This document shows positions 20,367 to 62,000 of a stretch of DNA of 64,000 bases, piece after piece. The DNA comes from Polyangiaceae bacterium (lineage in GTDB: Bacteria > Myxococcota_A > Polyangia > Polyangiales > Polyangiaceae). The translations under genes and the position numbers were made by a program. How positions within the stretch are numbered: position 1 is the first letter of the stretch; each line of letters starts with the position of its first letter. The stretch covers positions 1,738,708 through 1,802,707 of the forward strand of contig JABTUA010000002.1 in the NCBI GenBank assembly GCA_015075635.1. The letters are read 5' to 3'. The notes beneath the pieces are model-generated. The model ran no database searches. It worked only from the letters and a program-made list of their open reading frames with translations, and had not been told where the DNA came from.

Positions 20367-20369
20367 GGC

Positions 20370-20723: not shown

Positions 20724-20763
20724 CTCGACCCGGATGGTACCCGGTCCCTCGGGCCGCGAGCCC

Positions 20764-31797: not shown

Positions 31798-33122
<1,325 letters not shown>

Positions 33123-33126
<4 letters not shown>

Positions 33127-33449
33127 GCTGCCCTCCCGGCCAGCGCCTGCTCGAGCTGGGCCACGCTCACGCGAACGCCGCCGCCCGGCAGGCGAACGTG
33201 CGGCAGGCGACCGGCGTCGAGCCAACGGCGCGCGGTGCGCTGCGACACACCGAGGCGCTCGGCGACCTGCGGGAGCGAGAGGTAAACGATCTCGGGCGCG
33301 GGCTGCGGCTTGGCTTCCTCCCGAAGCTCCTGAAGCTCTCGCCGGGTTTCTGCTAGCTCGGTGCGCAGCTCTTCGAGCACGCCGACCAGCGGCTTCTGGG
33401 CCTCGATGATCGCGGCCGCCACGAGATCGGAGAACACATCAGACGCCAT
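33123..33449 (-). CDS. Excisionase/MerR-type HTH DNA-binding protein
   Basis: ATG at 33449. C-terminal LSLPQVAERLGVSQRTARRWLDAGRLPHVRLPGGGVRV matches the excisionase-family HTH. Confidence 0.75.
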
Positions 33450-44600: not shown

Positions 44601-45625
44601 CCACGCTGCTCGCCACGAAATCCGAGGCGGACGCGCGCGACCAGTTCAAGCTCTGCACGCAGTCGCAGTGGCAGTACGCCAACGCCAAGAAGGTCCTGGC
44701 TACCGGCGGATGGCGAAAGCAGTTGGTGTCGTGCCTGTACCGTCCCTTCGATGAGCGATGGACGGTCTATGACCCGAGCGTCCTTGTTCATCGCCGAGAG
44801 CGCGTGAACGCCCATCTCCTGGATCCGGGAAACGTCGCCCTCCTCACGACGCGAATGACCAAGGGAGACGACTTCAACCACGTCTTCTTGTCCGACCAGA
44901 TCACAGAGGTCATCAGCCTTTCGTCGAAGACCTCGGCCAACGCGTTCGTGTTCCCGCTGTTCCTCCGCGATCCCGACGGACTCGTGAAGCGCAACCAGCC
45001 CAACATCGACCGCCACGTGGTGGCTGCGTACACCGACATCGCGGGGAAGGCGGCCACGCCCATGGCGATGTTCGAGTACTGGTACGCCGTACTCTCCAGT
45101 CCATCCTACAGACGGCGGTACAACGATCTCCTCATCCGAGAGTTCCCTCGCGTGCCTCGCCCCTCGTCGGCTGAGGTGTTCAAGGCGCTTGGCGAGCACG
45201 GGAAGCGCCTCGTCGAACTGCACCTGCTGAAGACGTCGCCGAAATCGCTCGGGCCCGATGAGGGACTCCAGGGAAAAGGGGACGGAGTCGTCGCGCCTGG
45301 GATGCCGAAGTTCGACGCTAAGGAAGGAAAACTCTGGATCAACACGAAGCAGTGGTTCGGAGGAGTCTCCGCTGCTGTCTGGGGATTCAAGATCGGCAGC
45401 TACGAGGTCTGCAAGAAGTGGCTCTCCGCCCGGCGTGGACGCGCTCTCTCAACTGACGAGTCCCGGAGGTTCGCGCTGGTGCTCAACGCTCTCCGAGAAA
45501 CGATCGAGGAGCAGAGCAAGATCGATCGCACCATCGAGACGTGCGGCGGGTGGCCGGATGCCTTCCGCCTGGTCGGAGGTGCGGCGGCAGCCGCGAGCGT
45601 GCCCCCCGAGGAAGACGATGAGTAA
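41603..45625 (+). CDS. N6-adenine DNA methyltransferase, gamma-class, with type-ISP-like C-terminal specificity region
   Basis: [14 protein letters not shown], motif [14 protein letters not shown], motif [12 protein letters not shown]. The C-terminal [25 protein letters not shown] resembles the type ISP/IIG C-terminal domain. ATGA overlap with the helicase gene. Confidence 0.88.
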
Positions 45626-47546
45626 TGCCCGCTTCTGGTTCGTCCCCCTGAAGGACATCGCGCCCGCCGAGCAGCAAGCCCAGCTCGCCGCGAAGGAGGA
45701 CGTGCGCGCGAGCGACCTGCCCGCGTCGTTCAACGTCCCGTCAAAGCTCCATCAAGAGGGCATTCGCGCGGGCCACGTGCTCGCTCTGCACGACGGCGAC
45801 ACCGTAACGGCGCTCGCGCGCGTGCTGGCGCTAGACAGTGCGAGCTCGCTGCACTGGCGACGCCTACCGATGCTGGAGGCGCCGGAGCTGTCGGCGACGC
45901 CGGAGCTGCGCGAGGTCACAAGCACGGAGGCCCAGCAGTTCAAGGTCGGCATCGACGCCGTCCTTCGCGACGTGCCCGCGAGCAGCGTCGCGACGGCGAC
46001 GCCAACCACCACGGCCGCCTCTGGCGCGCGCTACTGGAAGGTCGCTCCCGGTCGAAACGGCATCGCGTGGCCCGAGTGGCGACAGCGAGGCATCGCGGCC
46101 ATCGGCTGGCCCGACCTCGGCGACATCTCCACGCTCGCCGAGGCTGACTTCCAAGCGCTCTCCAAGGCCAAGTACAACAAGAGCAAGCGCAGCGAGGGGC
46201 CGTACCAGGTGTGGCTGTTCCGCGCGATTCAGCCCGGGGACCGCGTCATCGCCAACAACGGGAGGACGTCGATCCTCGGCGTCGGCACCGTCACCGAGGG
46301 CTACCGGTATCGGCCCGGCGAGCACACCGTCGAGGGCGAGGACTTCCCGCACCAGATCAAGGTGAAGTGGGACGACACCACCGCGCGCGACATCGAGGAC
46401 CAGGCAGACTGGACGCGCACGCTGCGCGAGCTGCCGCAGGAGAAGTTCGAGACGCTCGTCGGCGGTAGCGGAGCCGTCCCGTTCTCGGTCACCGACCCGA
46501 GCAACATCATCCTCTACGGCCCGCCCGGCACCGGGAAGACGTACAACGTGCGAAGGCGCGCCCTCGAGCTGCTGGGCGACGCGACCGCCACCGACGCACC
46601 GAACGATCATGTGCAAGCCGAGTGGGAGCGGCTGCGCCAGGCGGGGCAGATCGTCTTCTGCACGTTCCACCAGGCCTTCGCCTACGAGGAGTTCGTCGAA
46701 GGCCTGCGCGCCATCACCGACGAAGAAGGCGACGTCCACTACCGAGTCGAGCCCGGCATCTTCAAGCGCATCGCCGCCACGGCGGCGCAGCAACGGAAGG
46801 CCGCCTTCGTCCTCGTTATCGATGAGATCAACCGCGCCAATATCGCGCGCGTCTTCGGCGAGCTGATCACGCTGCTCGAACCCGACAAGCGGCTCGGCAA
46901 CCCGAACGAACTGCGCGTGCAGCTCCCGTCGTCGAAGGAGTGGTTCGGCGTGCCGCCGAACCTGCACGTCGTCGGCACCATGAACACCGCCGACCGCTCC
47001 ATCGCGCTGATGGACGTCGCGCTGCGCCGCCGGTTCACCTTCGAGGAGATGATGCCCGACGCCGACGCGCTGAGCGATGCGCTCGCCGAGGCGAACGTCG
47101 ACGAGGCGTTGCGCACGCTTGTCGTCGCGGTGTTCACGAAGCTCAACGAGCGCCTGCGCTACCTCTACGACCGCGAGCACCAGATCGGGCACGCCTACTT
47201 CTTCGGCGTGCGCTCGTTCGATGGTCTGCGTGCCGTCTTCGCCGACTGCATCCTCCCGCTGCTTCAGGAGTACTTCTACGGCCAGTGGGACAAGGTCGCA
47301 CTCGCACTCGGCTACCCGATCAAGGCCGACGGCACGCCGAAGGAGGTGCGCGGCACCGAGCACGGCAGCGGCACCTTCCTCACGACGCAGAAGCTCGACG
47401 AGAAGACCGTGCTGGGCTTCGACCACGACGAGTACGTCGACCAGGTCGCGTGGGACGTGCATCCGGCCTTCCGCCCGCGCGGCAAGGCTGGCGATACGTG
47501 GCTGAAGCAGGCCTTCGAAGAGCTGGTTAGAGCCAAGGGGACCTGA
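45618..47546 (+). CDS. mcrB: McrB-family AAA+ GTPase with two-part N-terminal reader-like region
   Basis: ILYGPPGTGKTY, FHQAFAYEEFVEG, VLVIDEINRANIARVFGELITLLE, VVGTMNTADRSIALMDVALRRRF. 8-nt overlap with the MTase gene. Confidence 0.9.
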   Translation: MSNARFWFVPLKDIAPAEQQAQLAAKEDVRASDLPASFNVPSKLHQEGIRAGHVLALHDGDTVTALARVLALDSASSLHWRRLPMLEAPELSATPELREVTSTEAQQFKVGIDAVLRDVPASSVATATPTTTAASGARYWKVAPGRNGIAWPEWRQRGIAAIGWPDLGDISTLAEADFQALSKAKYNKSKRSEGPYQVWLFRAIQPGDRVIANNGRTSILGVGTVTEGYRYRPGEHTVEGEDFPHQIKVKWDDTTARDIEDQADWTRTLRELPQEKFETLVGGSGAVPFSVTDPSNIILYGPPGTGKTYNVRRRALELLGDATATDAPNDHVQAEWERLRQAGQIVFCTFHQAFAYEEFVEGLRAITDEEGDVHYRVEPGIFKRIAATAAQQRKAAFVLVIDEINRANIARVFGELITLLEPDKRLGNPNELRVQLPSSKEWFGVPPNLHVVGTMNTADRSIALMDVALRRRFTFEEMMPDADALSDALAEANVDEALRTLVVAVFTKLNERLRYLYDREHQIGHAYFFGVRSFDGLRAVFADCILPLLQEYFYGQWDKVALALGYPIKADGTPKEVRGTEHGSGTFLTTQKLDEKTVLGFDHDEYVDQVAWDVHPAFRPRGKAGDTWLKQAFEELVRAKGT

Positions 47547-48934
47547 TGCTGCGCGTGACTGTCCTCGAGCGTGGCCGCATCGTGCGGTCTGACTCCGACG
47601 CCGACAGCGTCGAGCTTGGGACACCTTCGCGCCGCGTGCTGCCCCAGCGCCTGTACGACCGGCTCTATCGCAGCGAGGGCGCTCGCGAAGACCGAGGCGA
47701 GGCGGCGGTGTTTCGCTGGCGGCGTAACCACTGCTTCGTCGGCCCCTGGGTTGGTGTGATGCAGATCCCCGGTTTGCAGCTCGAGATCTTGCCGAAGACC
47801 GACGAGGGCGCGGCGCAGGACAGCGACCAGGATGTCCGCGACATCCGAAGCAACCTGATGGAGATGCTGCTGCGCGGGGGGCTCGGAGCGGTGCGCGCGC
47901 GCGGCATCGCCGACCTCGCCCTCAAGCGCGGCAACCTTCACGATCAGCTCGTCGCCGCCTTCCTCGAGCGCACGCTGTTCGAGCTGCGGCGTGGGCTCGA
48001 TCGCGGCTACGCCACCGAGGAAGACAACCTCGCGACGCTGCGAGGCAAGCTCGTGCTCTCGCGGCACGTGGCGCTGAACGCCGCGCAGAAGGCCCGCTTC
48101 TACTGCCGGCACGACGTGCTCACCGAGGCCACGCAGATCTCCGTGCGGCTCAAGCAGGCGTGCCGCGTGCTCGCCGGCCGCGTGCTGCCCGTGACCGTAC
48201 TGGTGAAGTGCCATCAGGTGCTCGCGCTGCTCGACGACGTGCCCGACCTGCCGTTCCGCCACCGCGAGCCCGACCCGGTGTTCACGCGCCAGAACGAGCG
48301 CTTCGCCGACATCTACGGCTTCGCCTGCATGCTGCTCGAAGGCCAGGCGCCCGACGCGCGCAGCGGCGAGGTCGAGACCTTCTCCCTGCTGTTCGACATG
48401 GAGCAGGTGTTCGAGCGCTACATCGCCGCATTCCTCGCCTCCGAGGTCATGTACCGCTTTGCCGACGCGAGCCTGTTTCCGCAGGCGAAGGGGCAGCGTC
48501 ACAACCTCTACCTCGACGGGCAGGAGAAGGTGCTGCGCATGGCGCCCGACCTCGTATTCGTTCACGAGACGGCGGGTATCGAAGAAGCCAAGACGAAGAC
48601 GCTGATCATCGACACGAAGTGGAAGCGCCTCTCCGAAGAGGATGGCGGTCGCCCGAGCCGATCGGACCTCTACCAGCTCTACGCCTACCTGCACCGCTAC
48701 GACTGCCAGCGCGCGCACCTGCTCTATCCGAAGGCGGCGGGCATCCAGACGCGCGACCTCAATGCACGAGGGCGCAACGACTCGGACGCGGGCACGGTGG
48801 GCGTGCGCTTCGTCGACCTGAACCGGAAGCTCTGGACGCGCGAAGGCAAGACGGCGTTGGCCGACGAGCTCGCGGTCATCGTCCGTGAAGGTCTCGACCT
48901 CGCAGCGGCGGCGCCCGTGGAGGCCACGGCATGA
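47546..48934 (+). CDS. mcrC: McrC-family PD-(D/E)xK nuclease subunit
   Basis: APDLVFVHE...LIIDTKWKRL...DLYQLYAYL. TGATG overlap with mcrB. Confidence 0.85.
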   Translation: MLRVTVLERGRIVRSDSDADSVELGTPSRRVLPQRLYDRLYRSEGAREDRGEAAVFRWRRNHCFVGPWVGVMQIPGLQLEILPKTDEGAAQDSDQDVRDIRSNLMEMLLRGGLGAVRARGIADLALKRGNLHDQLVAAFLERTLFELRRGLDRGYATEEDNLATLRGKLVLSRHVALNAAQKARFYCRHDVLTEATQISVRLKQACRVLAGRVLPVTVLVKCHQVLALLDDVPDLPFRHREPDPVFTRQNERFADIYGFACMLLEGQAPDARSGEVETFSLLFDMEQVFERYIAAFLASEVMYRFADASLFPQAKGQRHNLYLDGQEKVLRMAPDLVFVHETAGIEEAKTKTLIIDTKWKRLSEEDGGRPSRSDLYQLYAYLHRYDCQRAHLLYPKAAGIQTRDLNARGRNDSDAGTVGVRFVDLNRKLWTREGKTALADELAVIVREGLDLAAAAPVEATA

Positions 48935-51525
48935 CCCGCGCTTCCTTCGACGTCCTCGTCACGCGCCTCGCCGAGTCGCCCACGACGTTCAGCGAGCGTG
49001 AGCTGCTCGAGCCCTCGCACTGGAGCCTCGGCGAAGACGCGCGGCTGCGCGAGGACCTGCGCTTCCGCGAGACGCCCTGGGGCCGCTGGATGCTCGCCGA
49101 GGACCTCGTCGTCAACGACGCGGTCTACCGCTGGCTCCACGCCGAGCGGCGCAGCTCGGTCGCGCTCGACGCCGCGCTGAAGCGCGCGGGCGAGGTGTTC
49201 GGGCGCCGCAGCGTGTTCTGCGCCGACGACCCGCGCTTCGTGCTGCGCCACGACGCGGTCCACCTCGCGGCGAGTGAGCTGTCGCGCCAGCCGGTGGTTG
49301 AGGGCAAGATCGGCGATCTTGAGAAGTACCGAACGCACCTGCCGCTCCACAGCCTGAAGGCAGCCGCCGCCTCGGAGCCCGCCGGCGAGTGGGGGAAGCG
49401 TGCGCAGGACCAGGTCATCGAGACGCTCGGCTGGGTGCGCGTCTCGCTGCCCGGGCGTCGGCTCAACGATCGGATGTTCATCGCGGCCATCGAGGGTCAC
49501 AGCATGGACGACGGCAGGAGCGGCCTCGTCGACGGCGGCTACGCGGTCTTCGAGCTCTGGCCGTCGGGCACCAAGCAGAACCTGAGCGTGCTGGTGCGCG
49601 GCGCCTTCTCCGACCCGGAGACCGGCAACTACGCGGTCAAGAAGTACGTGGCCGACCAGCGCGACGAAGAGGGTCGCCACAACAAGGTCTCGCTCGTCTC
49701 GCTGAACCCGAACAAGGAGCGCTACCCGAGCATCGAGCTGCAGCCCGAGGACGACGATGACATCACCGTCGTGGCCAAGGTGGTGCAGGCGCTCTCGACC
49801 GACGACTACGAGCGGCGCCCCAAGGCGAAACGCCGCGTGGGTCGGCGCAACCTCACCGGTGACGAGCAGGCCACGAGGCTCGGCCGTCGCGTGGCGTCGT
49901 TCTTCGATGGCACCGCGCCCGAGGCCGACGACGAGGGCGCGACCACGGCGACGAGCACCGGCTGGCAGACGCGGCTCGTGTGCCTCGACATCGCCGCTGG
50001 CGGTCTGCAGCTCGAGGTCGGCCCGCTCGATGGTCTCCCGACGTTCGTGAAGAAGCTGCGCGTCGTGGGCACGGAGTGGGATGGCTTCGTGCTGTCGGCG
50101 AACGCCAAGACGCGCCCGACGCGCGCGGCGGTACGTCCTGGAACGGGCCCGTGGCGCTGGGAGGCTGTGGGCTTTGAGGAGGAGCACGACCTCGGCCTCG
50201 ACAAGCTCGCCCTCGACGCGCTCGACGTAATGGCGCCCACCGTGTTCCGCGTCGATGCCGACGGCGTCGGCCAGCGCATCAAGAGCACGACCCTCGCGCT
50301 CGAGCAGGCCTACCGGTTGCTGCTCCCGCCGAACGTCGGAGATGACCTCGGCACCGAGCTGGATGGCGGCTGGCGTATCTGGTCGCTCGACCTCGCGGCG
50401 CAGCTCGCGCCCGCGACGCGGCAGATGCTGTTCACGCTCGGGCTTGATGTCGGTGAGGCGTGGCCGCGACTGGAGTGGGCGCTGGCTCCGGCTTCCGCGT
50501 GGCACACCAACCCGCGCGGCGAGAGCTACCCCGTCTTCGAAGTGGGCACGGAACTGCTCGTGAACGTGGGCAGCGTCGCGGTGGAGGATGGCGACGAGGC
50601 TGTGCTGTTCCTCCACGGCCCCTCGGGGACCGAGCGCCTGCCGCTGCCGTCGAGCGGCCTCGTCTCGCTGGGCGCGCCCGCAGCAGGGCGCTGGGCCTGC
50701 GCGCTCGTGCACTCGCGCACCAGCGTGCAGCCCGCGTCGCTGCTCTTCGAGGTCGCGGAGGACGCGCTTGAGGATATCGCTGCGTCGTACTCGGCGGTCG
50801 CCCACAGCGGACTGGCTTCGCTCGAAGCGGCGGCACCGCCCGGCTGGCCCGTCACGCTGCGCTGGCGCGTCTTCGCCGCCCACGAGGAGCTGCTGGCGAC
50901 CGTCTACGGCAACGAAGACGGGACGGTGCCGGTCGACGGCGATGTCGCGGAGACGATCAAGACCCGCGCCGCGCGGAGTCGCATCGCCGACCTCCTGATC
51001 GACTTCGGCGAGTTGGGGCGACGCATCCTCGCCCACGACGGCCGCGCGTCGTTGAAGCAGGTGCGTGAGCAACTCACGGCCCTCTGGCAGCAGTGCTCCG
51101 GCCTCGTGCAGAGCCGCAAGGGCGCGTGGCTCCAGCTCAGGAAGCCGTGGTTCGAGCCCGTCACGGAGCTCTTCGGTTACGGCCTCGAGGAGGCGACGCT
51201 GCTCGCCGACGTCGAGGCTCCTCATGACCTCACCGCGTGGGGTCTCACGGTCGACGAGCGCATGATGGGCAGCATCACGCGCTCGCCCTCGCGTGTCCTC
51301 GTGCTCACCACGGACCTTGACGCCGTGCTGCGCGACCACCGCACGTGGATCGACAGCGCGTGCTCGGCAGCGAAGGTGCGTGACGCCATCATCACCGATG
51401 GCGCCCGCTGGACGACGCACCGCAAGGGCAGCCAGCAGCTCAAGCAGCAGGTGTGGAGCCTCGATCACGCCATCGGGCTCGGCAGCATCGACGAGATGCT
51501 CGGCGACCTCGCGGAGAATCTGTGA
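48931..51525 (+). CDS. S24 (LexA/UmuD-like) domain protein fused to a ~554-aa unknown C-terminal module
   Basis: HLPLHSLKAAAASEPAGEWG...AAIEGHSMDD...YAVKKYV...ITVVAKVV fits the S24 Ser-Lys fold. The C-terminal module (from 49861) is paralogous to the C-terminus of the next gene. Confidence 0.8.
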   Translation: MTRASFDVLVTRLAESPTTFSERELLEPSHWSLGEDARLREDLRFRETPWGRWMLAEDLVVNDAVYRWLHAERRSSVALDAALKRAGEVFGRRSVFCADDPRFVLRHDAVHLAASELSRQPVVEGKIGDLEKYRTHLPLHSLKAAAASEPAGEWGKRAQDQVIETLGWVRVSLPGRRLNDRMFIAAIEGHSMDDGRSGLVDGGYAVFELWPSGTKQNLSVLVRGAFSDPETGNYAVKKYVADQRDEEGRHNKVSLVSLNPNKERYPSIELQPEDDDDITVVAKVVQALSTDDYERRPKAKRRVGRRNLTGDEQATRLGRRVASFFDGTAPEADDEGATTATSTGWQTRLVCLDIAAGGLQLEVGPLDGLPTFVKKLRVVGTEWDGFVLSANAKTRPTRAAVRPGTGPWRWEAVGFEEEHDLGLDKLALDALDVMAPTVFRVDADGVGQRIKSTTLALEQAYRLLLPPNVGDDLGTELDGGWRIWSLDLAAQLAPATRQMLFTLGLDVGEAWPRLEWALAPASAWHTNPRGESYPVFEVGTELLVNVGSVAVEDGDEAVLFLHGPSGTERLPLPSSGLVSLGAPAAGRWACALVHSRTSVQPASLLFEVAEDALEDIAASYSAVAHSGLASLEAAAPPGWPVTLRWRVFAAHEELLATVYGNEDGTVPVDGDVAETIKTRAARSRIADLLIDFGELGRRILAHDGRASLKQVREQLTALWQQCSGLVQSRKGAWLQLRKPWFEPVTELFGYGLEEATLLADVEAPHDLTAWGLTVDERMMGSITRSPSRVLVLTTDLDAVLRDHRTWIDSACSAAKVRDAIITDGARWTTHRKGSQQLKQQVWSLDHAIGLGSIDEMLGDLAENL

Positions 51526-54500
51526 TGGCGCCGTCGAACTACGCTGCAATCAGCGACGAGAACCGAACGCGCTACGGCACCGACATCGGCATCGTCGGCC
51601 CGATGCTGCTCGCGGACCGCTACGACGACCGCACGCACTTCATCTTCGAGTTGCTCCAGAACGCCGAGGACGCGCTTGGCCGACGCAGCGACGCGAGGGG
51701 ACCTCGGAGCGTCACCTTCACGCTGTCGCCCTGGCGCCTGAAGCTCTCGCACTTCGGAAGACCGTTCGACGAGGCTGACGTGCGTGGCGTCTGCGGCATC
51801 GCGCAGAGCACCAAGGACCAGCACTCCATAGGCCGCTTCGGCATCGGCTTCAAGTCGGTCTACACGTTCACGGATTGCCCGGAAATTCACTCGGGCGAGG
51901 AGGACTTCGCAGTCGAAAACTACGTCCAGCCGAAGGCGGTGGCGCCGTCGGCGCGCGTCGCAGGCGAGACCCAGATCATCCTGCCCCTCAAGTTGGGCGA
52001 CAGCAGCGCGGAGCAGGAGATCGCGAACGGCTTCCAGCGCCTCGGCCCTGGCGCGCTGCTGTTCCTTCGACACATCGACGAGATCAACTGGAACATCGAG
52101 GGCGGCGCTTCCGGCGTCTACATGCGGAGCGCCCCGGAAGCTCTCGCTGAGAACGTCCACCGCATCAAGGTGATCGGCCAGGAGACCGGCAAGCCCGAGG
52201 TCGACCAGAACTGGCTGGTGTTCCACCGCGACGTGTCCTCGAACGCCGCCGAGAAGGTCGGTCGCGTTGAGATCGCCTTCTCGCTCATGCCCAGCAACGA
52301 CGAACCCGGGCGATGGGCGGTTCAGCAGCTCGTGGCGTCGCATCTGGTGGTCTTCTTCCCCACGGTCGTCTCCACGAACCTTGGCTTCCTCGTGCAGGGG
52401 CCGTACCGCACGACGCCCAGCCGCGACAACGTGCAGCGCAACGACCCTTGGAACCAACAGCTCGTGCAAGAGACGGCCGACTTGCTGGTAGAGGCCGTTC
52501 GCTGGCTTCGCGACAACGGGATGCTCGACGCTTCGGCGCTGCGTTGCCTCCCGACGGACCGAGCCAAATTCCCCGAGGGCGCGATGTTCACGCCGCTCTT
52601 CGAGGCGGTGCGCGAGGCCTTCTTGGAAGAAGCGCTGCTCCCGCGCAACGACGGCGGCCACGTCACTGCAGCACAAGCAAGGCTGGCGCGCACCCAGGAG
52701 CTGCGAGAGCTGTTCAGCGCCGGGCAGCTCGAGGAGTTGTTCGACGCCGAAGACTGCGCGTGGCTCACGGGAGACATCACGCAGGACCGCGCGCCTGAGC
52801 TTCGAAGGTACCTGCTGCAGGAACTCCAGGTTCCAGAGCTCACGCCCGACAAGATCGTCGTGAAGCTGGACAAGGCATTCCTCGAAGCGCAGTCGGACGA
52901 GTGGCTGACGCGCCTCTATGCCTTCTTGAGCGCGCAGAAGGCGATCGCGGGCCTCTTCAGCGGGCTTCCTTTGGTTCGCCTCGACGACGGCACGCACGTC
53001 GTCGCGCGCGAGAACGGGAAGTCGAATGCGTTCCTTCCCAGCGACATAGAGACCAGCTTCCCGACCGTCCGTCACGCCGTGTGTGGGTCTCCCGAGGCGC
53101 GCAGTTTCCTCGTCTCACTCGGGCTCACGGCACCGGATCCGGTCGATGACGTCGTGTGGAACGTGCTGCCGAAATACCCAGCGCCCGCAGTCGAGGGCGA
53201 CGACAACGCTTATGCCGCCGACATCGAGCGCATCCGCGTCGCCTTCAACACCGACTCGAAGGCGCAGCGAGACAAGCTGGTCTCGGCGCTGCGAGAGACG
53301 TCGTTCGTGATGGTGGTCGATGCCGGTGACGGGGAGGGCTACGTCGCTAGTCCCGGTAAGGTGTACATCGCGACAGACCGACTGAAGGCGCTTTTCGCTG
53401 GCGTTTCTGACGTCCTCGTCGTCGACGACAACTACGAGTGCCTTCGCGGAGAGGCCGTCCGTGAGCTGCTCGAGGCTTGCGGAGCGCTGAGGTACCTGCG
53501 CCCGGTGCCGACCCCGAACGCGCTTTCGCCGGAGGCGCGCCGGGAACTCCGACGCCAAACCGGCCATGAACAACTTGGGCAGTACGAGGATGTGACGGAT
53601 TGGGAACTGCTGGGTATTGAAGCGCTTCTCGCTCTGCTGCCGACGCTTTCCCAAGAGCAGCGCGCTGAACGCGCGCGCTTGCTCTGGGAATCCTTGGGCG
53701 ACCTCGAGGAGCGACGCGGGCGTGGCGTGTTCGAGGGCTCCTACACGTGGACGCACTACGGCCAGCGCAAGGCACCGCCGTTCCCGGCCGCCTTCCTCCG
53801 TCGTCTCGCCAAGGCAGCATGGGTGCCCGATGCCAGCGGCGATCTGGTGCGTCCCGCGCTCGTGACTTTCGAGAGCCTCAGCTGGAAGGCCAACCCGTTC
53901 CTCCTCAGCAAGATCGCGTTCAAGCCGCCGATCATCGACCAACTCGCGAAGGAAGCGGGAATCGAGCCCGCAGCGCTCGACCTGCTGCGAAAGCTCGGCA
54001 TCACCAGCGTCGCCGATCTGGCCCGCATCGGCATCGCCAACAAGCCTCCGCCCTCACCGCCTGATGAAGCGGCGACCGATAACGATGAAACGGCGGACGA
54101 AGGCGCGGAGGCGCAGGCCGCGGAGGTCGACGAGGCCAGCGATGATGCTGACGACGCCCTCAGCGTCGCCAATGCGGCTGCCTCGGAGGATAACGACGCC
54201 TCCGACCTGACCGTGGCCGACGCTGATGAGCCAGCGGGGAGCGACACCAACGACGAAAGCCCCGAAGCAGAACCGACCGGGCCGCACGCCAACGGCGCTC
54301 GCGGACCTCGGTCAACTAGCGGCCAGCACCGCCCCCACGGAGCAGCACGTCCGGGTCAACGCAACATCACCGGCCAAGCAGGGCTCGACGAGCAGGCAAA
54401 GCGCCTGCGGCGCCGCGTGGCGTCGTTCTTCGAGGGCGCGACCTCCGACGCAGACGACGAAGATACGACCGCAAGTTCGAGCGTCGCGTGGCAGACGAAG

Positions 54501-56048
54501 CTCGTCTGCCTCGACGTCGCTGCGGGCGGCCTCCAGCTCGAGATCGGTCCGCTCGATGGTCTCCCGCCCTTCGTGAAGAAGCTCCGCGTCCTCGGCACCG
54601 AGTGGGATGCCTTCGTGTTGGCGACGAACGCGAAGTTGCGCCCAACGCGGGTGTCTGTGCGGCCCGGAACCGGTCCGTGGCAGTGGGAGGCCGTGGGCTT
54701 CGAAGACGAGCAAGACCTCGGCCTCGACCAGCTCGCGCTCGGCGCGCTCGACGTCACGACGCCGCGCGTGTTCCGCGTCGACACAGAGGGCGTGGGCCAG
54801 CTCGTCACGAGCACCACCCTCTCCCTCGGGCAGTCCTATCGGCTGCTGCTTCCGCCGAACGTCGGTGGGGAGGTCGGCACGGCGCTGGCTGACGGGTGGA
54901 GGATCTGGACGCTCGACCTGCCGGCGCAGCTCTCGCCGTCGACGGGCGACGCACTGAAGGCCATCGGCGTTGACGTGGGCGAAGCATCGCCGCGCCTCGA
55001 GTGGGCCCTGGCCCCTGCTTCAGCGTGGCGCACCAACGCGCGTGGCGACAGCTATCCGGTGTTCGACGAGGGGATGGAGCTCCTCGTGAACCTGAACGCC
55101 GTCGCCCTCGAGGACGGCGACGAGGCCATGCTGTCCCTCCACGGCCCCGCAGGCACGGAACGCCTGGCTCTCTCGACGAGCGGGCTCGTCTCCCTGGGCA
55201 AACCCGCGGCGGGACGGTGGGCCTGCGCGCTGCTGCATTCGCGGACCAACGTGCAGACCGCGACGCTGGTCTTCGAGGTCGCGCGGAGCGTCACCGAGTA
55301 CGTCAGCGCGGCGTGGACGACGGGCGTGCCGCACGGATTGGCGTCGCTCGAAGCGACCGCCCCGCCTGGGTGGCCCGTCTCCGTGCGCTGGGGTGGGCTC
55401 GCCGCACACGAGGAGACGATCGCGACGGTCTACGGCAACGACGACCGGACCGTGTCCTTCGAGGATGTCCATCCACTCCTCGAGGCCCGTGCCGCACGAG
55501 CATCCGTCGCTGACCTCGTCGTCGACTTCCGCGAGCTGGGTCGCCGTCTGGTCCCTCTCGAGGGCCGCGCCTCGCTGGAGGAAATCCGCGCGCAGCTCAT
55601 CGCTCTCTGGCAACAGCGCTCCGAGCTCGTGCAGAGCCGCAAGGGCATGTGGTTGCAGCTCATGCCCACGTGGTTCGAGCCGACGACGACACGCCTTGGC
55701 TATGGCGTCGAATCGCTCGCCATACCCGACGGCGCAGATGCGCCGCACGACCTCGCCGCGTACCTGCTCACCATCGACGAGCGGACGAACGGAAGCATCA
55801 CGCGGTCGCCGTCGCGTCTCCTCGTGCTCACGACCGACGTCGACAGCGTGCTCCGCGACCTGCGCGAGTGGATCGACAGCGCCTGCGCGGCAGCGAGGGT
55901 GCGCGACGCGATCGTCACCGACGGCACCCGGTGGGCGACGCACCGCAAAGGCGACCGCCAACTCCGGCGGCGCGAGTGGTCGTTCGACCGCGCAATCAAT
56001 CTCGGCAGCGTGGACGACATGCTGAACGACCTCACGGAGGGTTTGTGA
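51525..56048 (+). CDS. GHKL (Bergerat-fold, sacsin/MORC-like) ATPase, 1507 aa, with acidic linker and shared C-terminal module
   Basis: N-box FIFELLQNAEDAL and G-box SIGRFGIGFKSVYTF. Asp/Glu/Ala-rich linker at about 54040-54290. The C-terminal ~553 aa are paralogous to the previous protein. TGATG overlap. Confidence 0.85.
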   Translation: MAPSNYAAISDENRTRYGTDIGIVGPMLLADRYDDRTHFIFELLQNAEDALGRRSDARGPRSVTFTLSPWRLKLSHFGRPFDEADVRGVCGIAQSTKDQHSIGRFGIGFKSVYTFTDCPEIHSGEEDFAVENYVQPKAVAPSARVAGETQIILPLKLGDSSAEQEIANGFQRLGPGALLFLRHIDEINWNIEGGASGVYMRSAPEALAENVHRIKVIGQETGKPEVDQNWLVFHRDVSSNAAEKVGRVEIAFSLMPSNDEPGRWAVQQLVASHLVVFFPTVVSTNLGFLVQGPYRTTPSRDNVQRNDPWNQQLVQETADLLVEAVRWLRDNGMLDASALRCLPTDRAKFPEGAMFTPLFEAVREAFLEEALLPRNDGGHVTAAQARLARTQELRELFSAGQLEELFDAEDCAWLTGDITQDRAPELRRYLLQELQVPELTPDKIVVKLDKAFLEAQSDEWLTRLYAFLSAQKAIAGLFSGLPLVRLDDGTHVVARENGKSNAFLPSDIETSFPTVRHAVCGSPEARSFLVSLGLTAPDPVDDVVWNVLPKYPAPAVEGDDNAYAADIERIRVAFNTDSKAQRDKLVSALRETSFVMVVDAGDGEGYVASPGKVYIATDRLKALFAGVSDVLVVDDNYECLRGEAVRELLEACGALRYLRPVPTPNALSPEARRELRRQTGHEQLGQYEDVTDWELLGIEALLALLPTLSQEQRAERARLLWESLGDLEERRGRGVFEGSYTWTHYGQRKAPPFPAAFLRRLAKAAWVPDASGDLVRPALVTFESLSWKANPFLLSKIAFKPPIIDQLAKEAGIEPAALDLLRKLGITSVADLARIGIANKPPPSPPDEAATDNDETADEGAEAQAAEVDEASDDADDALSVANAAASEDNDASDLTVADADEPAGSDTNDESPEAEPTGPHANGARGPRSTSGQHRPHGAARPGQRNITGQAGLDEQAKRLRRRVASFFEGATSDADDEDTTASSSVAWQTKLVCLDVAAGGLQLEIGPLDGLPPFVKKLRVLGTEWDAFVLATNAKLRPTRVSVRPGTGPWQWEAVGFEDEQDLGLDQLALGALDVTTPRVFRVDTEGVGQLVTSTTLSLGQSYRLLLPPNVGGEVGTALADGWRIWTLDLPAQLSPSTGDALKAIGVDVGEASPRLEWALAPASAWRTNARGDSYPVFDEGMELLVNLNAVALEDGDEAMLSLHGPAGTERLALSTSGLVSLGKPAAGRWACALLHSRTNVQTATLVFEVARSVTEYVSAAWTTGVPHGLASLEATAPPGWPVSVRWGGLAAHEETIATVYGNDDRTVSFEDVHPLLEARAARASVADLVVDFRELGRRLVPLEGRASLEEIRAQLIALWQQRSELVQSRKGMWLQLMPTWFEPTTTRLGYGVESLAIPDGADAPHDLAAYLLTIDERTNGSITRSPSRLLVLTTDVDSVLRDLREWIDSACAAARVRDAIVTDGTRWATHRKGDRQLRRREWSFDRAINLGSVDDMLNDLTEGL

Positions 56049-57031
56049 TGACGCTCTCGCATGTCACTCGCGAAGAGGCAGTGAAGCGGCTCGCTGAGAG
56101 GCAAGCCGGTGCCCCAGACTCCATCGAAGCGCTGTGCGATTTCCTGCGCGCCGAGGTTCACGCCCGGAAGCACGCGCCGCGCGCGGCGACGCTTTCGCGC
56201 GTCGCACGACTGCTCGCGCCCGCCATCACGCTCGATGAGCAGCGCCTCGACGAGGTGTGCGACGCGCTCGAGCGCGAGGGTGACGTGATGCTCAACCCGG
56301 GCGGCATCCTCTACGCAACGCCGACCCGCGTGGTTGCCACTGAGACGAGTGCTCGTACCTTCAGCAGCGTGCCGACGCGCGCGCTTGCGAAGGCGCTCGG
56401 ACGCGACATCTCCGCGAAGGGCGCCTCGCGCACAATCACCTCGGTGGAAGGGCTCACCGAAGCCGTCGCCAAGGTGAGCGGCGTGATGGTCCCACCCGCA
56501 GCGTGGGCCGGGCTCGACCGCTCGCCGAACGCCGACGCGGCCTTCCTTGGGAAGCTCGACCAGAGGCTCGAATGGCAGGCGCTCGGCGCAGGCTCGCTTG
56601 AGAAGGACGGGGCGCTCGAATGGCGTGCCTGGCATGTCACGCCGGAAGGGGCGCGGTGGCGGCGCAGCAACGAAGGCCAACTCTGGTGGGCGCGTACGCG
56701 CTTCGGCAGCCACCATCGCGCGTGGACGACGAGCGCGTCTCCGGCGACGAGCCCGTTCGTCGCGCTGAGCCCCGACGACGCCGACCGCGCCCGCTTCGCG
56801 CTCTCGCGCGAGATCGCTGCGGCTTCGGTCCTGCGTGTCGAGCGAGCCGGCAAGCGCGTGACTATCGAGGTTCCCGGTTGGCTGCCGCGCCCCGAGTACC
56901 GCTGGCTCTCGCTGCACGCGGTGGCCGTTGCGGAGAGCAAGGGCATGCGCTGGGAGACCTCGACGGATAGCGAAGACCAGATCACGAAGCTGCTGGCCGA
57001 GCGTCTCGGTCTCGTCGTGGAGGCCACGTGA
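56048..57031 (+). CDS. Hypothetical protein (327 aa)
   Basis: The ATG at 56048 overlaps the previous stop (TGATG). GC3-biased. No family recognised. Confidence 0.7.
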   Translation: MTLSHVTREEAVKRLAERQAGAPDSIEALCDFLRAEVHARKHAPRAATLSRVARLLAPAITLDEQRLDEVCDALEREGDVMLNPGGILYATPTRVVATETSARTFSSVPTRALAKALGRDISAKGASRTITSVEGLTEAVAKVSGVMVPPAAWAGLDRSPNADAAFLGKLDQRLEWQALGAGSLEKDGALEWRAWHVTPEGARWRRSNEGQLWWARTRFGSHHRAWTTSASPATSPFVALSPDDADRARFALSREIAAASVLRVERAGKRVTIEVPGWLPRPEYRWLSLHAVAVAESKGMRWETSTDSEDQITKLLAERLGLVVEAT

Positions 57032-59094
57032 CGCGACGACAGCTCACCATCAAACCGAGCTGCATGCGGGAGATCGCGACGTTCCCTTCGGACCGCGCCG
57101 CGCTGCTCTGGGACAAGATCGACGCGCTCGTCTCCGACCCACTCCCCGATGGGAAGGTGAAGAAGAAGCTCAAGGGCGCCGACGGCGTCTACCGCATGCG
57201 CGTGACGGACCACCGCGTGTTCTATCGCTTCGGCGAGGACTGGCTCAGCCTGCTCGGCATCCGGCGGCGCGCCGAAGACACCTACGACGGCGTGCCCGAC
57301 GAGACCGCCGGCGCCCAAGCGCCCGACGACGGCGACGAAAACCTCGATGCGCTCATCGCAGCCGCGCAGCCGAAGGTCTTCCAGCTCAAGACGACCGCGC
57401 CCGAGACAACGCTGCCCGAGCCCATCACGCAGGAGCTGCTGCGCGAGCTCGGCGTGCCCGTCGCGGTGGTGCCGACTCTGTTGCACTGCAAGACGGAAGA
57501 AGCGTTGCTCGAAGCCCCCGTGCCTCCCGACGTTCTCAGTCGCGTCGTCGACCGCCTCTTCCCGCCGACCATCGAACGGCTCGACGAGCAGCCCGATCTC
57601 GTCGTCGCGTCCACGAAGGACCTGGTTCGTTTCAAGGAGGGCGACCTCCTCGGCTTCCTGCTGCGGCTCGACGAGGACCAGCTCAAGCTGACCCAGTGGG
57701 CGATGAAGGGACCCACGCTTGTTCGTGGCGGTGCAGGTACGGGCAAGAGCACCGTCGCCCTCTACCGCGTGAAGGCCCTCCTCGAACGGCCCGGCGCGAC
57801 AGGCGCCGAGCGCGTGCTGTTCACGACCTACACGCGCTCGCTGCTCACCGTAACGCAGCAGCTCCTCGAACAGCTCCTCACGCCCGCCCAGCTTCGCCGT
57901 GTCGATGTCGCGACGTGCGACCAGGTTGCATGGCGCATCGTCGGCAAGGCTCGCAAGGTCGGCCAGCTCGAATCCGACAACGACGCGCTCAAGCGCCTGG
58001 CCAAGCTCCGGGCGACGCACGCGCCCGGCGGCTCCGACTTCGAAGCGAAGCTGCGTGCGCGGGCGCTGGAGCGCCTGACGGACGCGTGGCTGCTCGAAGA
58101 GTTCGAGTGGATCATCGAGGGACGCGGCCTGACGAGCCTCACCGAGTACCAGGCGGCGGCGCGTCCGGGTCGAGGGCTGCCGCTCAACGAGCGTGCTCGC
58201 GCGGCTGTTTGGGAACTGTACGAGGCGTTCAGCAGGGGCGCGGGCGAACGCTACCCGGCGCTGCGCTGCGAGGCGCTGAAGCTGCTCGCCGAAGACGCCA
58301 AGGCGGTCCGCTACGACTACGTGGTCGTCGATGAGGCGCAGGACCTGAGCCCCGTCTCGCTCGCGCTGATGGCCGAGGTCTGCAAGACCGCCGAGGGCCT
58401 GTTCTTCGCCGCCGACAACAAGCAGTCGCTCTACTCGCGCAACTACACGTGGAGCTCGGCGCACCCGCGCCTCCAGTTCCGAGGGCGCACGGCGCTGCTC
58501 TCTCGCAACTACCGCTCGACGCGTGAGATCGACCGCGCCGCGTTCTCGGTGCTCGTGCCCGGTGAGGACGAGGAGCTGGTGGCCTCGAATAGCGTCCACG
58601 AAGGGCCGCTTCCGGTGCTGGTACGTGGCATCGCCGCCGACAAGCAGGCCGAGTGGATGGCACGCTTCGTCCGGCAAATGGCGCGTCACCTTCACCTGAA
58701 GGCGAGCACCGCCGCCGTGCTCGTACCCGTGGCTGCCGCAGGCGAAACGCTGGCCACCGAGCTTCAGGCGCAGGGCGTCCCGGCTCGCTTCTTCCCTGGC
58801 CGCGATCTCGACCTCAAGGCCGACGTCGTGCGCGTGTTGACGCTGCACGCGGCCAAGGGCCTGGAGTTTCCCATCGTCATCGTCGCTGGCCTCGACAGCG
58901 GCAACTGGCCCGTGCCCGAGGACTTCGAAGAACCGGACCTCTTCGCTGAGCGCGCACGCCACGAGCGGCGTGTGCTCTACGTCGGGCTCACCCGCGCGAT
59001 GCGCGGCTTGATGCTGATTTCTCCACAAGGATGTCGGCATCCCGCCGTCGTCGATCTCGACCTCAACCACTGGCACGTGGAGAGCGCCCCATGA
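57028..59094 (+). CDS. RelE/ParE-like N-domain fused to UvrD/Rep-type SF1 helicase
   Basis: N-terminus KKLKGADGVYRMRVTDHRVFYRFGEDWLSLLGIRRRAEDTY. Helicase motifs GGAGTGKSTVALY, YDYVVVDEAQDLSP, RNYRSTREI, LTLHAAKGLEFPIVIV, VLYVGLTRAMRGL. Confidence 0.88.
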   Translation: MTRRQLTIKPSCMREIATFPSDRAALLWDKIDALVSDPLPDGKVKKKLKGADGVYRMRVTDHRVFYRFGEDWLSLLGIRRRAEDTYDGVPDETAGAQAPDDGDENLDALIAAAQPKVFQLKTTAPETTLPEPITQELLRELGVPVAVVPTLLHCKTEEALLEAPVPPDVLSRVVDRLFPPTIERLDEQPDLVVASTKDLVRFKEGDLLGFLLRLDEDQLKLTQWAMKGPTLVRGGAGTGKSTVALYRVKALLERPGATGAERVLFTTYTRSLLTVTQQLLEQLLTPAQLRRVDVATCDQVAWRIVGKARKVGQLESDNDALKRLAKLRATHAPGGSDFEAKLRARALERLTDAWLLEEFEWIIEGRGLTSLTEYQAAARPGRGLPLNERARAAVWELYEAFSRGAGERYPALRCEALKLLAEDAKAVRYDYVVVDEAQDLSPVSLALMAEVCKTAEGLFFAADNKQSLYSRNYTWSSAHPRLQFRGRTALLSRNYRSTREIDRAAFSVLVPGEDEELVASNSVHEGPLPVLVRGIAADKQAEWMARFVRQMARHLHLKASTAAVLVPVAAAGETLATELQAQGVPARFFPGRDLDLKADVVRVLTLHAAKGLEFPIVIVAGLDSGNWPVPEDFEEPDLFAERARHERRVLYVGLTRAMRGLMLISPQGCRHPAVVDLDLNHWHVESAP

Positions 59095-62000
59095 GCAATG
59101 TGAACCTCCACAACTACGCCGATGAAGGTCGTCTCGTCGACGCGGACATCGTCGGCTTCCTCCGCAAGAAGCTCGACAAGGGCGACAAGCTTGATTTCAC
59201 GAACATAGTCGAGGTGGCCGACGCGGTGCTCGACGCGCTTTTCGACGGCTGGTCGCCGGAGCAAGTGGCCGAGGTCATCGCTGAGCTGAGCCCGGCCGCC
59301 GACAGGGCGCTCGCTGCGTGGTCGGATCGCGCGGGCGGCAAGGTCACGAAGGCAGAGAAGACCACGCGCAAAGCCACCGTGCGCAAGCCGGCGCAGTCGC
59401 CGCGCCCGCCCTCGGTCCTCGAACGCGACCCGACGGGCGACGAGCGTTTCACGCCCACGCGCCTCGTGCGCCGTCTTCAGGAGGCCCTGCAGGGCTACAT
59501 CGAGAGCGCATACCCGCTGAACGACCCGACGCTGGTCCGCTCACGTCGCCGCCTGCTCAAAGAGGAGGCGGGCGGCCACCTGCTCGCGCAGGAGCCCTAC
59601 ATCGAGACCACCACGCGCTACGCGACGTCGAAGGCGACCTACGGTGACATCGGGTTCACGCCGGAGATCGCAGGCTTTTTCTCGAAACTGGCCAAGACGC
59701 CGTCGGCGCAGAGCACTCCGGAGGACGAACGCACGGTCCTTCTTCCGTCGATCTACATGCATCAGGAGCGCGCCTTCCGCGAGTTCCTCGTGGAGCGGAA
59801 GGACATCGTCGTGGCGACGGGCACGGGCTCCGGGAAGACGGAGTGCTTCCTCGTGCCGATGCTGGGCTCGCTCTACGATGAGGCCGTTCGGTCGCCGAGG
59901 ACGTTCGAGCAGCCCGGCGTGCGCGCGCTGATCCTGTACCCGATGAACGCGCTGGTGAATGACCAACTCTCGCGCCTGCGCCTGCTACTCGGCGACCCTG
60001 CCGTCGCCGACGCCTTCAAGGGGCTCGGGAAGGATCGCCGCTTCCCGCGCTTCGGCATGTACACCGGGCGCACGCCGTACCCCGGCCCGCGAACGACCTC
60101 GCGAGACGGCGAGCGTGTGAAGCCGCTGCTTGACTACTATTTGGGCCTGCCGCCCGAGGTCGAAGAACGCCTCCGTCGTCTGGGACGCTATCCCGCCAAG
60201 GATCTCCGCGCCTTCTACGCGCAGAACGAGGCGCGCCGCAAGACGTACCAGAGCGGCAAGCGCACCGGGCAGGAGTATACGGACCACAACTGGGAGCGGC
60301 GCCTGCATACCGGGGCTGCCGATCGCGAGCTGCTGACGCGGCAGGAGATGGTCCACGGCGCAGGCAGCCGCCCGGGCCACGCGCCCGACGTCCTGGTCAC
60401 GAACTATTCGATGCTCGAGTACATGCTCATGCGCCCGTTCGAGCGCCCCATCTTCGCCGAGACGAAGGGCTGGCTCGACCGGGACGGCACGCAGCTCCTG
60501 CTCGTCCTCGACGAGGCGCACATGTACCGGGGAGCCAAGGGTGCGGAGGTCGCGTTCCTCATCCGCCGCTTGCGCGCGCGTCTTGGCATCCACGACCGCC
60601 CCGACAAGCTGCGCGTCATCGCCACATCCGCCTCGCTCGGCGAAGGCGCGGCGGCGGTCGATGCGGTCAAGCGCTTCGCCGCTGACATCACCGGCAAGCG
60701 CCCTGAGAGCTTCGAGGCCATCACGGGCACGCGCGAGGTTCCGACGCCTGCCAGCCCCGCCCCGAAGGACGTGGCCGACACGCTGGCCTCGCTCGACCTC
60801 GACGGCATCAACGAGGCGCTCGACGCACCCGCGCTCCGCGAGAAGCTCGCGCCGCTGCTCCCGGCGAGCATCGCGACTGACGCCAGCGAGAACGAAGTGC
60901 TCGCGGCCCTGCATGCAGCCTTGAAGAACAAGCCGTGGGTCAACCAGTTGGTGAAGGAAGCGGCTGGCCACGCGGTCGCAGTGAGCGAGCTCGCTCCGCG
61001 CGTGTTCCCGGGTCACCCGGAGGCTCGCCGCGCGCTGGAAGCGCTTCTCACGGTGTCCACGCTCGCGCGCAACAAGGCCGACGAACCGGGGTTAGTGCCG
61101 ACGCGCGTGCATGGGCTCTTCCGTGGCCTGCACGGGCTCTATGCCTGCGTGAACCCGCAGTGCGGTGGACGCCAGAGCGAGCCGGGCGAGCAGGCTATCC
61201 TGGGCAAGCTATTCACCACTCCGAGCGCGGTGTGTGACGCCTGCGGCTGCCGCGTCTTCGAGATCGCGTCATGCCGCGACTGCGGCAGCCCGTACCTGCT
61301 CGCCTACTCGCAGGAGGAGTCGCTCGACCGGCTCTCCTTCCTCTGGGGCGAGACCGAGGGCGCGCTGTTCCGTCTGCAGCTTTTGCCGACCGCGCCGCGC
61401 TACACCGACCGCACCGAGATCGTGCGGCTCCACCTGCGCACCGGCTACCTCGATACCGGCAATCGCTTCCCTGACGACGAGGTTCGCAACCTGGCCCTCT
61501 GGCTCGATAGCGATGGCAAGCGCGAGGCCTCGTTCGACCGCTGCGCCATGTGCCAGCCCTCGGCGAACGCGAGGAGCCGCATCCACGACTTCAGGACGCG
61601 CGGCGAGCAGCCCTTCACGGCGCTCATCGAGGCGCAGTTCGCGGAACAGCCGCCGCAGAAGAAGGACCGTCGCCTACCGAACCACGGGCGAAAGGTCCTG
61701 GTCTTCAGCGACGGCCGGCAGAAGGCTGCACGCCTGGCACCCGCGCTCGAGCACAGCCACGCACGCGATCTGTTCCGCCAGGTCGTCGCGCTTGCTGCCC
61801 ACGAGCTTCGTGACAAGGCGGGCATGTCGGCGATGCAGTACCTCTATCCCGCCGTCGTGCATCTCTGCGCCCAGCGCGGCTACGACCTGTTTCCTGCCGC
61901 CGACGAGAGCGAGTTCCACAACCATCTGAAGCAAGCGAATGGACGTTCGCTCGCAGAGGTAAGGAAGCTCGCAGATCGCGGCATGCTGCGCGCCACGCGT

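Follow-up and report, generated by a model that had tools for sequence, protein, structure and literature searches.

Druantia type I reportedly comprises the genes DruA-DruB-DruC-DruD-DruE, a composition said to go back to Doron and colleagues in 2018, and to our knowledge no mechanism is known for it. Bell et al. 2025 (PMC12458937) refer to the system as 'Type IV CoCoNuT'. Defence islands with YprA-family helicases form a class that was flagged in Bell et al. 2024 (PMC11090510) and described in Bell et al. 2025, and both the link of such islands with McrBC and their carriage on tRNA-integrated elements have already been published (PMC11090510, PMC12458937). Here, an island of this kind was analyzed in a 64,000-nucleotide (nt) stretch of a Polyangiaceae bacterium (GCA_015075635.1, contig JABTUA010000002.1, positions 1,738,708 to 1,802,707 of the forward strand; hereafter the window), in which two adjacent genes encode proteins with different N-terminal heads, one S24 peptidase-like and one a GHKL ATPase, and with the same C-terminal module of about 553 amino acids (aa). 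The island class is known; what is new is the module family and the range of its fusion partners. We consider it probable, at roughly 60%, that a variable partner subunit in a Druantia type I-like helicase-nuclease system is defined by the module at its C-terminal end, where the module would act as a docking scaffold that links the head to the core of the system. The two genes and the two copies of the module are located as follows.

48931-51525, forward strand: S24-module gene, 864 aa (from translation)
51525-56048, forward strand: GHKL-module gene, 1507 aa (from translation)
49861-51522, forward strand: module copy 1 (M1), the C-terminal 554 aa of the S24 protein (from BLASTP)
54387-56045, forward strand: module copy 2 (M2), the C-terminal 553 aa of the GHKL protein, a paralogue of M1 (from amino acid and nucleotide identity)

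The repeated block spans residues 311-864 of the S24 protein and residues 955-1507 of the GHKL protein. BLASTP pairs residues 294-864 of the former with the last 574 residues of the latter (380/575 identities, 66%; 80% positives; 5 gap positions; 765 bits; E = 0.0), in an alignment that starts about 17 residues upstream of the sequence DEQA and ends at both C-termini, and it returned no further aligning region between the two proteins outside the module. In the DNA, the blocks at 49861-51522 and 54387-56045 share 75.2% of their nucleotides (1248/1659), and their alignment has 3 gap columns. A preliminary description of this DNA, made from the letters alone, had reported a duplicated module at the C-termini of two adjacent proteins, colinear and nearly without gaps, with about two-thirds of the residues identical by eye, and had quoted a series of shared peptides; translation places the peptides at the positions given there, and the pairwise alignments bear out the duplication, its coordinates, its colinearity and its degree of identity. 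The same description had deemed compositional bias an unlikely alternative. At least 11 independent loci of different organisms have a colinear pair of S24-module and GHKL-module genes, and the repeat is therefore not a product of compositional bias.

Two observations could be taken to mean that the repeat arose artificially in assembly or annotation, or that the GHKL fusion is a decaying pseudogene: the 1507-aa protein of the window was not returned by the word-indexed homologue search, which yielded only the fragments P0100 and P0103, and the related locus L001 is broken by frameshifts. The first of these is a blind spot of the search and not biology. Four independent assemblies have the GHKL-module gene called at 1507 aa, and an open gene of 1503-1507 aa is found in NCBI, ENA, JGI and Logan assemblies and in five genera (Xenophilus, Rhodanobacter, Ramlibacter, Myxococcus and Rubrivivax). 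In addition, a 1507-aa fusion stands as a representative (P0125) in the library clustered at 50% identity, and the ratio of non-synonymous to synonymous substitution rates (dN/dS) of the GHKL fusion is about 0.2. The independent assemblies, P0125 and the dN/dS value refute an artefact or pseudogene, which we regard as almost certainly wrong.

Neither copy of the module matches a Pfam family at E <= 10, and no match was obtained in NCBIfam, in PADLOC (E <= 5) or among Protein Data Bank (PDB) sequences, the last with both a single-sequence and a profile query; 34 family members scanned singly against PADLOC at E <= 0.5 likewise gave no match in the module. The earlier statement that the module could not be assigned to a known domain family thus withstands these searches. 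In the 50%-identity library the module is found in 140 representative clusters. The heads of 139 representatives were classified as a conserved N-terminal domain followed by S24 (42), the N-terminal domain only (8), other heads (26), GHKL (1) and fragments (61). The commonest head is the LexA-like S24 domain, and the GHKL head is confined to one cluster, that of the window.

The genomic context of the module was compared by mapping the proteins of the window onto 21 genome loci and several metagenome contigs, with a locus search that started from a 12-sequence alignment. The genes that flank the two module genes in the window are the following.

37200-41606, forward strand: SNF2-family helicase (DrmD/BrxHII/ArmA-like), first gene of the co-directional array
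41603-45625, forward strand: Type ISP/IIG-like N6-adenine methyltransferase with a Type_ISP_C specificity domain
45618-47546, forward strand: McrB (Pfam AAA_5, NCBIfam McrB)
47546-48934, forward strand: McrC (Pfam McrBC)
56048-57031, forward strand: p327, 327 aa, a putative distant DruD relative (synteny in about 30 loci)
57028-59094, forward strand: UvrD-family helicase with a ParE/RelE-like N-terminus, ArmD/GajB-like (Pfam, PADLOC, BLASTP)
59091-64000, forward strand: YprA-family DruE1-type helicase, which runs off the end of the window and has 1937 aa in the source contigs

The order SNF2 helicase, methyltransferase, McrB, McrC, S24-module protein, an optional GHKL-module protein, p327, UvrD helicase, YprA helicase and PD-(D/E)xK nuclease is fixed, and it is kept even where the module is only 31-38% identical. 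Wherever enough sequence is available downstream, a p327 homologue comes immediately after the last module gene, and the DruE1-type helicase comes next, either directly or after the UvrD gene or one or two inserted genes. This obligate synteny of module, p327 and helicase holds at module identities from 90% down to 30%. In the related loci a PD-(D/E)xK nuclease is usually encoded after the YprA helicase.

Fusions of the module to other heads allow the invariant part of this arrangement to be delimited. The preliminary description had raised the matter of which N-terminal domains the module is joined to elsewhere, and beside S24 and GHKL these include ZorD-like SNF2+Mrr proteins (P0133, P0228), BrxHI/Lhr-like helicases (P0163, P0194) and others, the ZorD and BrxHI architectures being represented by two separate 50% clusters each. 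In locus L033, the ZorD+module protein closes a Zorya type I operon (ZorA-ZorB-ZorC-ZorD), and in P0163, on a JGI contig, the BrxHI+module protein closes a BREX type 2 operon (PglX-PglY-PglZ-x-BrxD-BrxHI). At the ZorD+module and P0163 loci the next gene is a p327 homologue (29-37% identical), followed by a YprA helicase of about 1900 aa with YjiV_N, and the same downstream genes come after P0194 and after a protein with an unassigned 228-aa head; the UvrD gene is absent from the Zorya and BREX fusion loci. Since the upstream genes of loci with other heads are wholly different while those downstream are the same, the invariant unit consists of the head-module protein, p327 and the YprA helicase, usually with the nuclease. 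The complete Zorya type I (L033, 763-11245) and BREX type 2 (P0163 contig) operons are, together with the DruD-like/DruE1-type genes after them, candidate hard-wired two-system hybrids.

The helicase of this unit was assigned by profile score. The orthologue in locus L006, which is 86-89% identical to the partial gene of the window, reaches 1411 bits (E = 0) on the PADLOC DruE1 profile, and the helicase of L033 reaches 1439 bits over profile positions 4-1771 of 1776, against calibration values of 323 bits for E. coli ArmC and 575 bits for E. coli type III DruE. Scores of this size, obtained nearly end to end, identify a DruE of the Druantia type I kind. The gene calls of the YprA helicase carry DEAD, YjiV_N, Helicase_C and MZB, and BLASTP of the helicase gives 3e-25 to E. 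coli ArmC versus 8e-36 to E. coli DruE. The DruD1 profile is matched by 3 of 12 members of the p327 family (best 1e-5 and 5e-4), the p327 of the window having no match at E <= 5, and a PDB profile search with p327 produced noise only. The PD-(D/E)xK nuclease of the related loci matches DruK/Cas4 profiles in PADLOC. DruA, DruB and DruC had no PADLOC match among the operon proteins, nor among 34 S24-module members (E <= 0.5).

The locus resembles Druantia type I in its DruE1-type YprA helicase, in the putative distant DruD relative of about 330 aa upstream of it and in the co-directional operon. It differs in that a head-module protein stands in place of DruA, DruB and DruC, that a UvrD helicase separates the DruD-like gene from the DruE-like one in the window, that the helicase is followed by a separate PD-(D/E)xK nuclease, and that SNF2, methyltransferase and canonical McrBC genes lie upstream. 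With ARMADA type II (ArmA-ArmB-ArmC-ArmD) it shares an SNF2 helicase, a large N6-adenine methyltransferase, a RelE/ParE-UvrD protein and a YprA helicase in one array, as well as the apparent location on a tRNA-integrated island. The UvrD protein is 29% identical to E. coli ArmD over 518 aa (E 4e-39) and has a PADLOC match to GajB and Pfam matches to UvrD-helicase/UvrD_C, together with a ParE_toxin match at aa 23-84 (E 2.5e-4) that lies below the gathering score. The SNF2 protein matches the DrmD/BrxHII profiles and E. coli ArmA at only 6e-6; the methyltransferase matches PglX at only E 0.0027 and has no BLASTP match to E. coli ArmB. In contrast to ARMADA type II, the helicase of the window is DruE1-type and not ArmC-type, the UvrD gene precedes the YprA gene, and five extra genes lie between the methyltransferase and UvrD genes; ARMADA type II as described (PMC12458937) is also devoid of a module, S24 or GHKL component. 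An assignment of the island to ARMADA type II was rejected, because neither the calibration of the helicase against ArmC and DruE nor the gene order fits the published definition (PMC12458937). The ARMADA and CoCoNuT papers, including the portion of their supplements consulted, make no mention of an S24, GHKL, sacsin or peptidase component, and the module family is new to the literature searched, as are its pairing with a DruD-like protein and its ZorD, BrxHI, TmtA-like and S24 fusions. The preliminary description had seen in the module a plausible core of a new system; it does belong to the core of a multi-gene system and is no chance repeat, although the system is not wholly new, since the module goes together with a DruD-like protein and a helicase of the Druantia type I (DruE1) kind.

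The structure of the module was modelled with AlphaFold2 on a 59-sequence alignment. The whole-module model has a mean predicted local distance difference test score (pLDDT) of 89.1 and a predicted template modelling score (pTM) of 0.54, the latter being a value that would fit a chain of domains with uncertain relative orientation. In M1, the model places an N-terminal helix at aa 2-16, a short acidic disordered linker, a beta-sandwich region at aa ~36-354 (nt 49966-50922) and an alpha/beta C-terminal domain (CTD) of 200 residues at aa 355-554 (nt 50923-51522). Judging from the strand pattern rather than from coordinates, the beta region appears to consist of three or four beta-sandwich domains, of which the first is the most conserved part of the module. 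The CTD modelled alone is predicted with a pLDDT of 93.5 and a pTM of 0.87, and D381, H392 and D513 are its only polar residues that are at least 90% conserved in 59 diverse members. For the whole module, Foldseek searches of PDB and BFVD yielded nothing beyond generic tandem immunoglobulin (Ig)-like/macroglobulin arrays, among them complement C3, adhesins and phage tail proteins, with TM scores of 0.10-0.20, and these were rejected as evidence of homology. The CTD had no significant match among solved structures (best E 0.049); a fold assignment on this basis was also rejected, and the matches to nuclease domains were retained as a weak lead only. The model is confident, and the structural searches, like those of sequence, do not place the module in a characterized family.

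As a working model, the nearest analogy is DruH, the partner of DruE in Druantia type III, described from cryo-electron microscopy as a globular head followed by six Ig-like domains and a C-terminal domain, and as a sensor that binds single-stranded DNA (ssDNA), in competition with ATP, between Ig5 and the C-terminal domain (bioRxiv 10.64898/2026.05.12.722862). Set against this published description, the module proteins are likewise predicted to have a head, then Ig-like domains in a row and then a separate C-terminal domain, and they are encoded upstream of a DruE-family helicase; the module has fewer beta domains than DruH (the STY4851/ECs_5259 family) and a DruD-like gene intervenes before the helicase.

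In the mechanism that we favor, the invariant core would consist of the head-module protein, a DruD-like protein of about 330 aa, a DruE1-type YprA helicase and usually a PD-(D/E)xK nuclease. The module would be a scaffold of Ig-like domains with a family-specific CTD that docks onto the DruD-like/DruE-like core, so that the docked module would couple whichever N-terminal head is present to the helicase-nuclease, and it may also bind an infection signal. Docking and sensing functions are both suggested by the synteny, the fusion pattern and the predicted fold. In favor of the mechanism as a whole we counted the synteny of module, p327 and helicase, the DruE1 scores of the helicase and the DruD1 matches of p327 relatives, the ZorD and BrxHI fusions, the range of heads, the inheritance of the module with the DruD/DruE half of the island, the single clade of M2 with selection on both copies, and the architectural parallel with DruH. 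Several points weigh against it. Synteny alone cannot separate docking from an independent activity of the module protein. The link to DruD is weak, with three of twelve p327 members matched and the copy of the window unmatched. The UvrD gene between p327 and the helicase, together with the ARMADA-like and McrBC genes upstream, implies that the functional unit may exceed the triad. The parallel with DruH, for which E. coli Sakai (NC_002695) ECs_5259 and 41 homologues served as reference, is not matched in sequence: comparison of the module (58 sequences) with the DruH profile (41 sequences) gave an hhalign probability of 0.1% (E 0.56), BLASTP found no match between module and DruH, and the DruH Pfam families PF27205 and PF27201 were not matched by the module (E <= 10). 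Finally, the conserved D381, H392 and D513 of the CTD could indicate catalysis and not docking. On the hhalign, BLASTP and Pfam results, homology of the module with DruH was rejected at the sequence and profile level, and the resemblance is architectural only.

The last point leads to an alternative in which the CTD has enzymatic activity, perhaps that of a highly diverged restriction-endonuclease-like nuclease, and the module proteins are effectors. Apart from the exclusive conservation of these three polar residues, it draws on the best Foldseek matches being nuclease-bearing proteins (EcoR124I HsdR, MspJI). These matches are not significant, however (E 0.05-0.4, TM <= 0.26, probability <= 0.66), the CTD shows no PD-(D/E)xK motif pattern, comparison with Pfam, PADLOC and PDB sequences gave no match, and the system already has a dedicated PD-(D/E)xK protein of its own. 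We consider an enzymatic CTD decidedly improbable.

A more serious alternative holds that the module is mainly a sensor rather than a docking scaffold, binding phage-derived nucleic acid (e.g. ssDNA) or a phage protein and evolving under an arms race. The architecture of the module parallels that of DruH, and in distant loci the module (31-38% identity) and p327 (30-41%) diverge about twice as fast as the UvrD and YprA helicases (60-69%); across the family, the module is also less well conserved than the N-terminal S24 part. The fast divergence of the module, being matched by that of p327, fits a co-evolving interface equally, and there is no detectable homology to DruH or to its nucleobase pocket, nor does the dN/dS of 0.15-0.30 between orthologues point to gene-wide positive selection. 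We would give a mainly sensory role a chance not far below even; it overlaps with the docking function, and both could be true together.

That same dN/dS range, 0.15-0.30 for orthologues of both copies and 0.15-0.24 for those of M2, indicates that both modules of the window are maintained by purifying selection. The GHKL-module gene is present in one sub-clade, comprising the window, L007/L013, L012, L014-L019, L021+L023, L022 and the P0112 contig; L006, L020 and every locus at a greater distance lack it. A neighbour-joining tree groups the M2 sequences of 11 loci in a single clade, with the M1 sequences of the same sub-clade as sister group, and the identity between M1 and M2 of the same locus (59-71%) equals the cross-locus mean (66.8%). 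Gene conversion between M1 and M2 was tested for with this comparison and the tree and was not found. The single M2 clade and the equality of same-locus and cross-locus identities therefore point to one old duplication without gene conversion since; in the lineage of the window, a single tandem duplication of the module would have produced a copy that acquired a GHKL ATPase head.

This history bears on the suggestion, made in the preliminary description, that the shared module reflects hetero-oligomerization of the S24 and GHKL proteins or a common ligand or target. Ig-like arrays often mediate self-association, and two modules that are 66% identical are encoded side by side under purifying selection, as would suit proteins that oligomerize module to module. 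The GHKL copy is missing, though, in 10 of the 21 mapped genome loci and in 138 of the 139 representative clusters, and the copies show none of the concerted evolution that a mutual interface might favor. Because most systems have a single module protein, hetero-oligomerization cannot be the ancestral or primary role of the module, and we consider it unlikely for the two proteins of the window; homo-oligomerization of module proteins is possible. Of the two options offered earlier, the common partner or target is the most economical. Under the docking mechanism, the two module proteins of the window most likely address the same partner, and they probably use the same surface of it, in parallel or as alternatives.

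The heads that would be brought to this partner are both recognizable, and the names S24 protein and GHKL protein given in the preliminary description hold, on account of the S24 matches of family members and the SACS, P_loop_sacsin and TmtA matches of the GHKL protein. Their parts are listed below.

S24 protein aa 1-~130, forward strand: N-terminal domain, conserved, with no assigned fold
S24 protein aa 142-148: stretch LKAAAAS, resembling a LexA-like cleavage site
S24 protein aa ~163-285, nt 49417-49785, forward strand: S24 peptidase-like domain, with Ser191 in GHSMDD and Lys237 in AVKKY
GHKL protein aa 1-~850, nt 51525-54074, forward strand: GHKL/Tiamat (TmtA)-like region, a sacsin/Hsp90-like ATPase
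GHKL protein aa ~851-954, nt 54075-54386, forward strand: acidic low-complexity linker

In the S24 protein, whose identical sequence (P0001) occurs on 8 contigs, a basic linker joins the S24 domain to the module. The window protein falls below the Pfam threshold for Peptidase_S24 (PF00717; E 0.012, 15.8 bits versus a cut-off of 23.3), the family being matched by 21 of 34 members (best 4.4e-10), and the Ser191/Lys237 dyad is conserved in at least 90% of members. The head is accordingly predicted from sequence to have an S24 fold with a Ser/Lys catalytic dyad. Like LexA, UmuD and lambda CI, it keeps the dyad (GxSMDDG...K), an N-terminal domain that precedes the peptidase domain and an Ala-rich strand upstream that resembles the cleavage-site region. 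Unlike them, it is sub-threshold in Pfam in the case of the window protein, has the site AAAS (conserved A146-A147-S148) without Gly at P1' in place of Ala-Gly, and carries the appended 554-aa module. Its N-terminal domain gave no PDB sequence match.

The GHKL protein matches Pfam SACS (2.2e-14), NCBIfam P_loop_sacsin (3.9e-21) and PADLOC TmtA (1.5e-57), the last aligning residues 33-779 with profile positions 71-850 of 1486. It thus has in common with Tiamat, which PADLOC lists as a defence system of one gene, the N-terminal half of the TmtA profile and a sacsin-type GHKL ATPase motif, but the C-terminal ~640 profile positions are absent and are replaced by the acidic linker and the module, and the gene lies inside a conserved multi-gene operon whereas TmtA stands alone. 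A full-length, stand-alone TmtA was rejected as an identification, given the partial profile coverage and the lack of a TmtA match in the module. The linker, about 100 residues rich in Ala, Asp and Glu, is kept in position, and only loosely in sequence, in P0100 and P0103.

The island that carries the system has a probable boundary upstream of the defence array.

31798-33225: probable island boundary, formed by tRNA-Thr at 31798-31872 (forward strand) and a tyrosine integrase at 31804-33225 (reverse strand)

The housekeeping gene argJ (30572-31759, reverse strand) lies just before the tRNA-Thr(CGT) gene, and the tRNA with its adjoining integrase makes the defence array appear to reside on a tRNA-integrated genomic island. 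The G+C content drops to 0.64-0.68 at 32-38 kb and 42-46 kb of the window. Between the integrase and the array lies a DUF5131 (phage Gp37/Gp68-like) gene (35239-36006, reverse strand, E 1e-105), flanked by open reading frames of 421 and 403 aa, neither of which matches Pfam. McrB has an N-terminal DUF8426 domain in gene calls, and its residues 138-258 match PADLOC PDC-S02 (2e-15), a region that may be a DNA-reader domain. Comparison of loci shows the island to be a mosaic, with a left half (SNF2 helicase, methyltransferase, McrB) and a right half (module to PD-(D/E)xK) that differ in history. Locus L032 has a methyltransferase 99% and an McrB 88% identical to those of the window, with a module at 33% and a helicase at 59%, and in L006 the S24 head is 89% identical and the methyltransferase only 41%. 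The contrast between methyltransferase and module in L032 indicates that the module is inherited with the DruD/DruE half and not with the methyltransferase/McrBC half. Comparison of L006, L026 and L032 with window positions 37200-48934 puts an apparent recombination breakpoint in the vicinity of McrC.

Two related loci carry insertions. In L007/L013 (Xenophilus sp.), an insertion sequence element with a DDE_Tnp_1 transposase splits the UvrD gene at ~18089-21031, so that this copy of the system may be inactive. In L036 (5819-7343, reverse strand), the p327 homologue and the YprA helicase are separated by genes for a caspase-like Peptidase_C14 and a ThsB-type TIR protein, so that the system here encloses a further defence pair.

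The range of heads also raises a wider possibility, which we put forward tentatively and at clearly less than even odds: the module could be a general docking adaptor that wires Zorya I (ZorD), BREX type 2 (BrxHI), a Tiamat-like ATPase and a LexA-like damage sensor to a shared Druantia-type effector. If so, the gene fusions would be a Rosetta-stone record of hard-wired cooperation among defence systems, and the window would represent one effector core served by two input heads at once. Experimental work has reported synergy where Zorya, Druantia and ARMADA systems are co-located (PMC12458937, PMC13192584), and the module fusions offer a possible structural basis for such coupling.

A single unannotated module thus marks the variable partner of a DruD-like/DruE1-type core and occurs in fusions with signature proteins of Zorya, BREX and Tiamat. 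Docking predicts that the module binds the DruD-like protein or the helicase, that swapping heads changes the trigger of the system and that, in the fused loci, Zorya or BREX activity feeds a Druantia-type effector. The module family merits a family definition of its own, which would cover some 140 clusters of large defence proteins that are now annotated as hypothetical.

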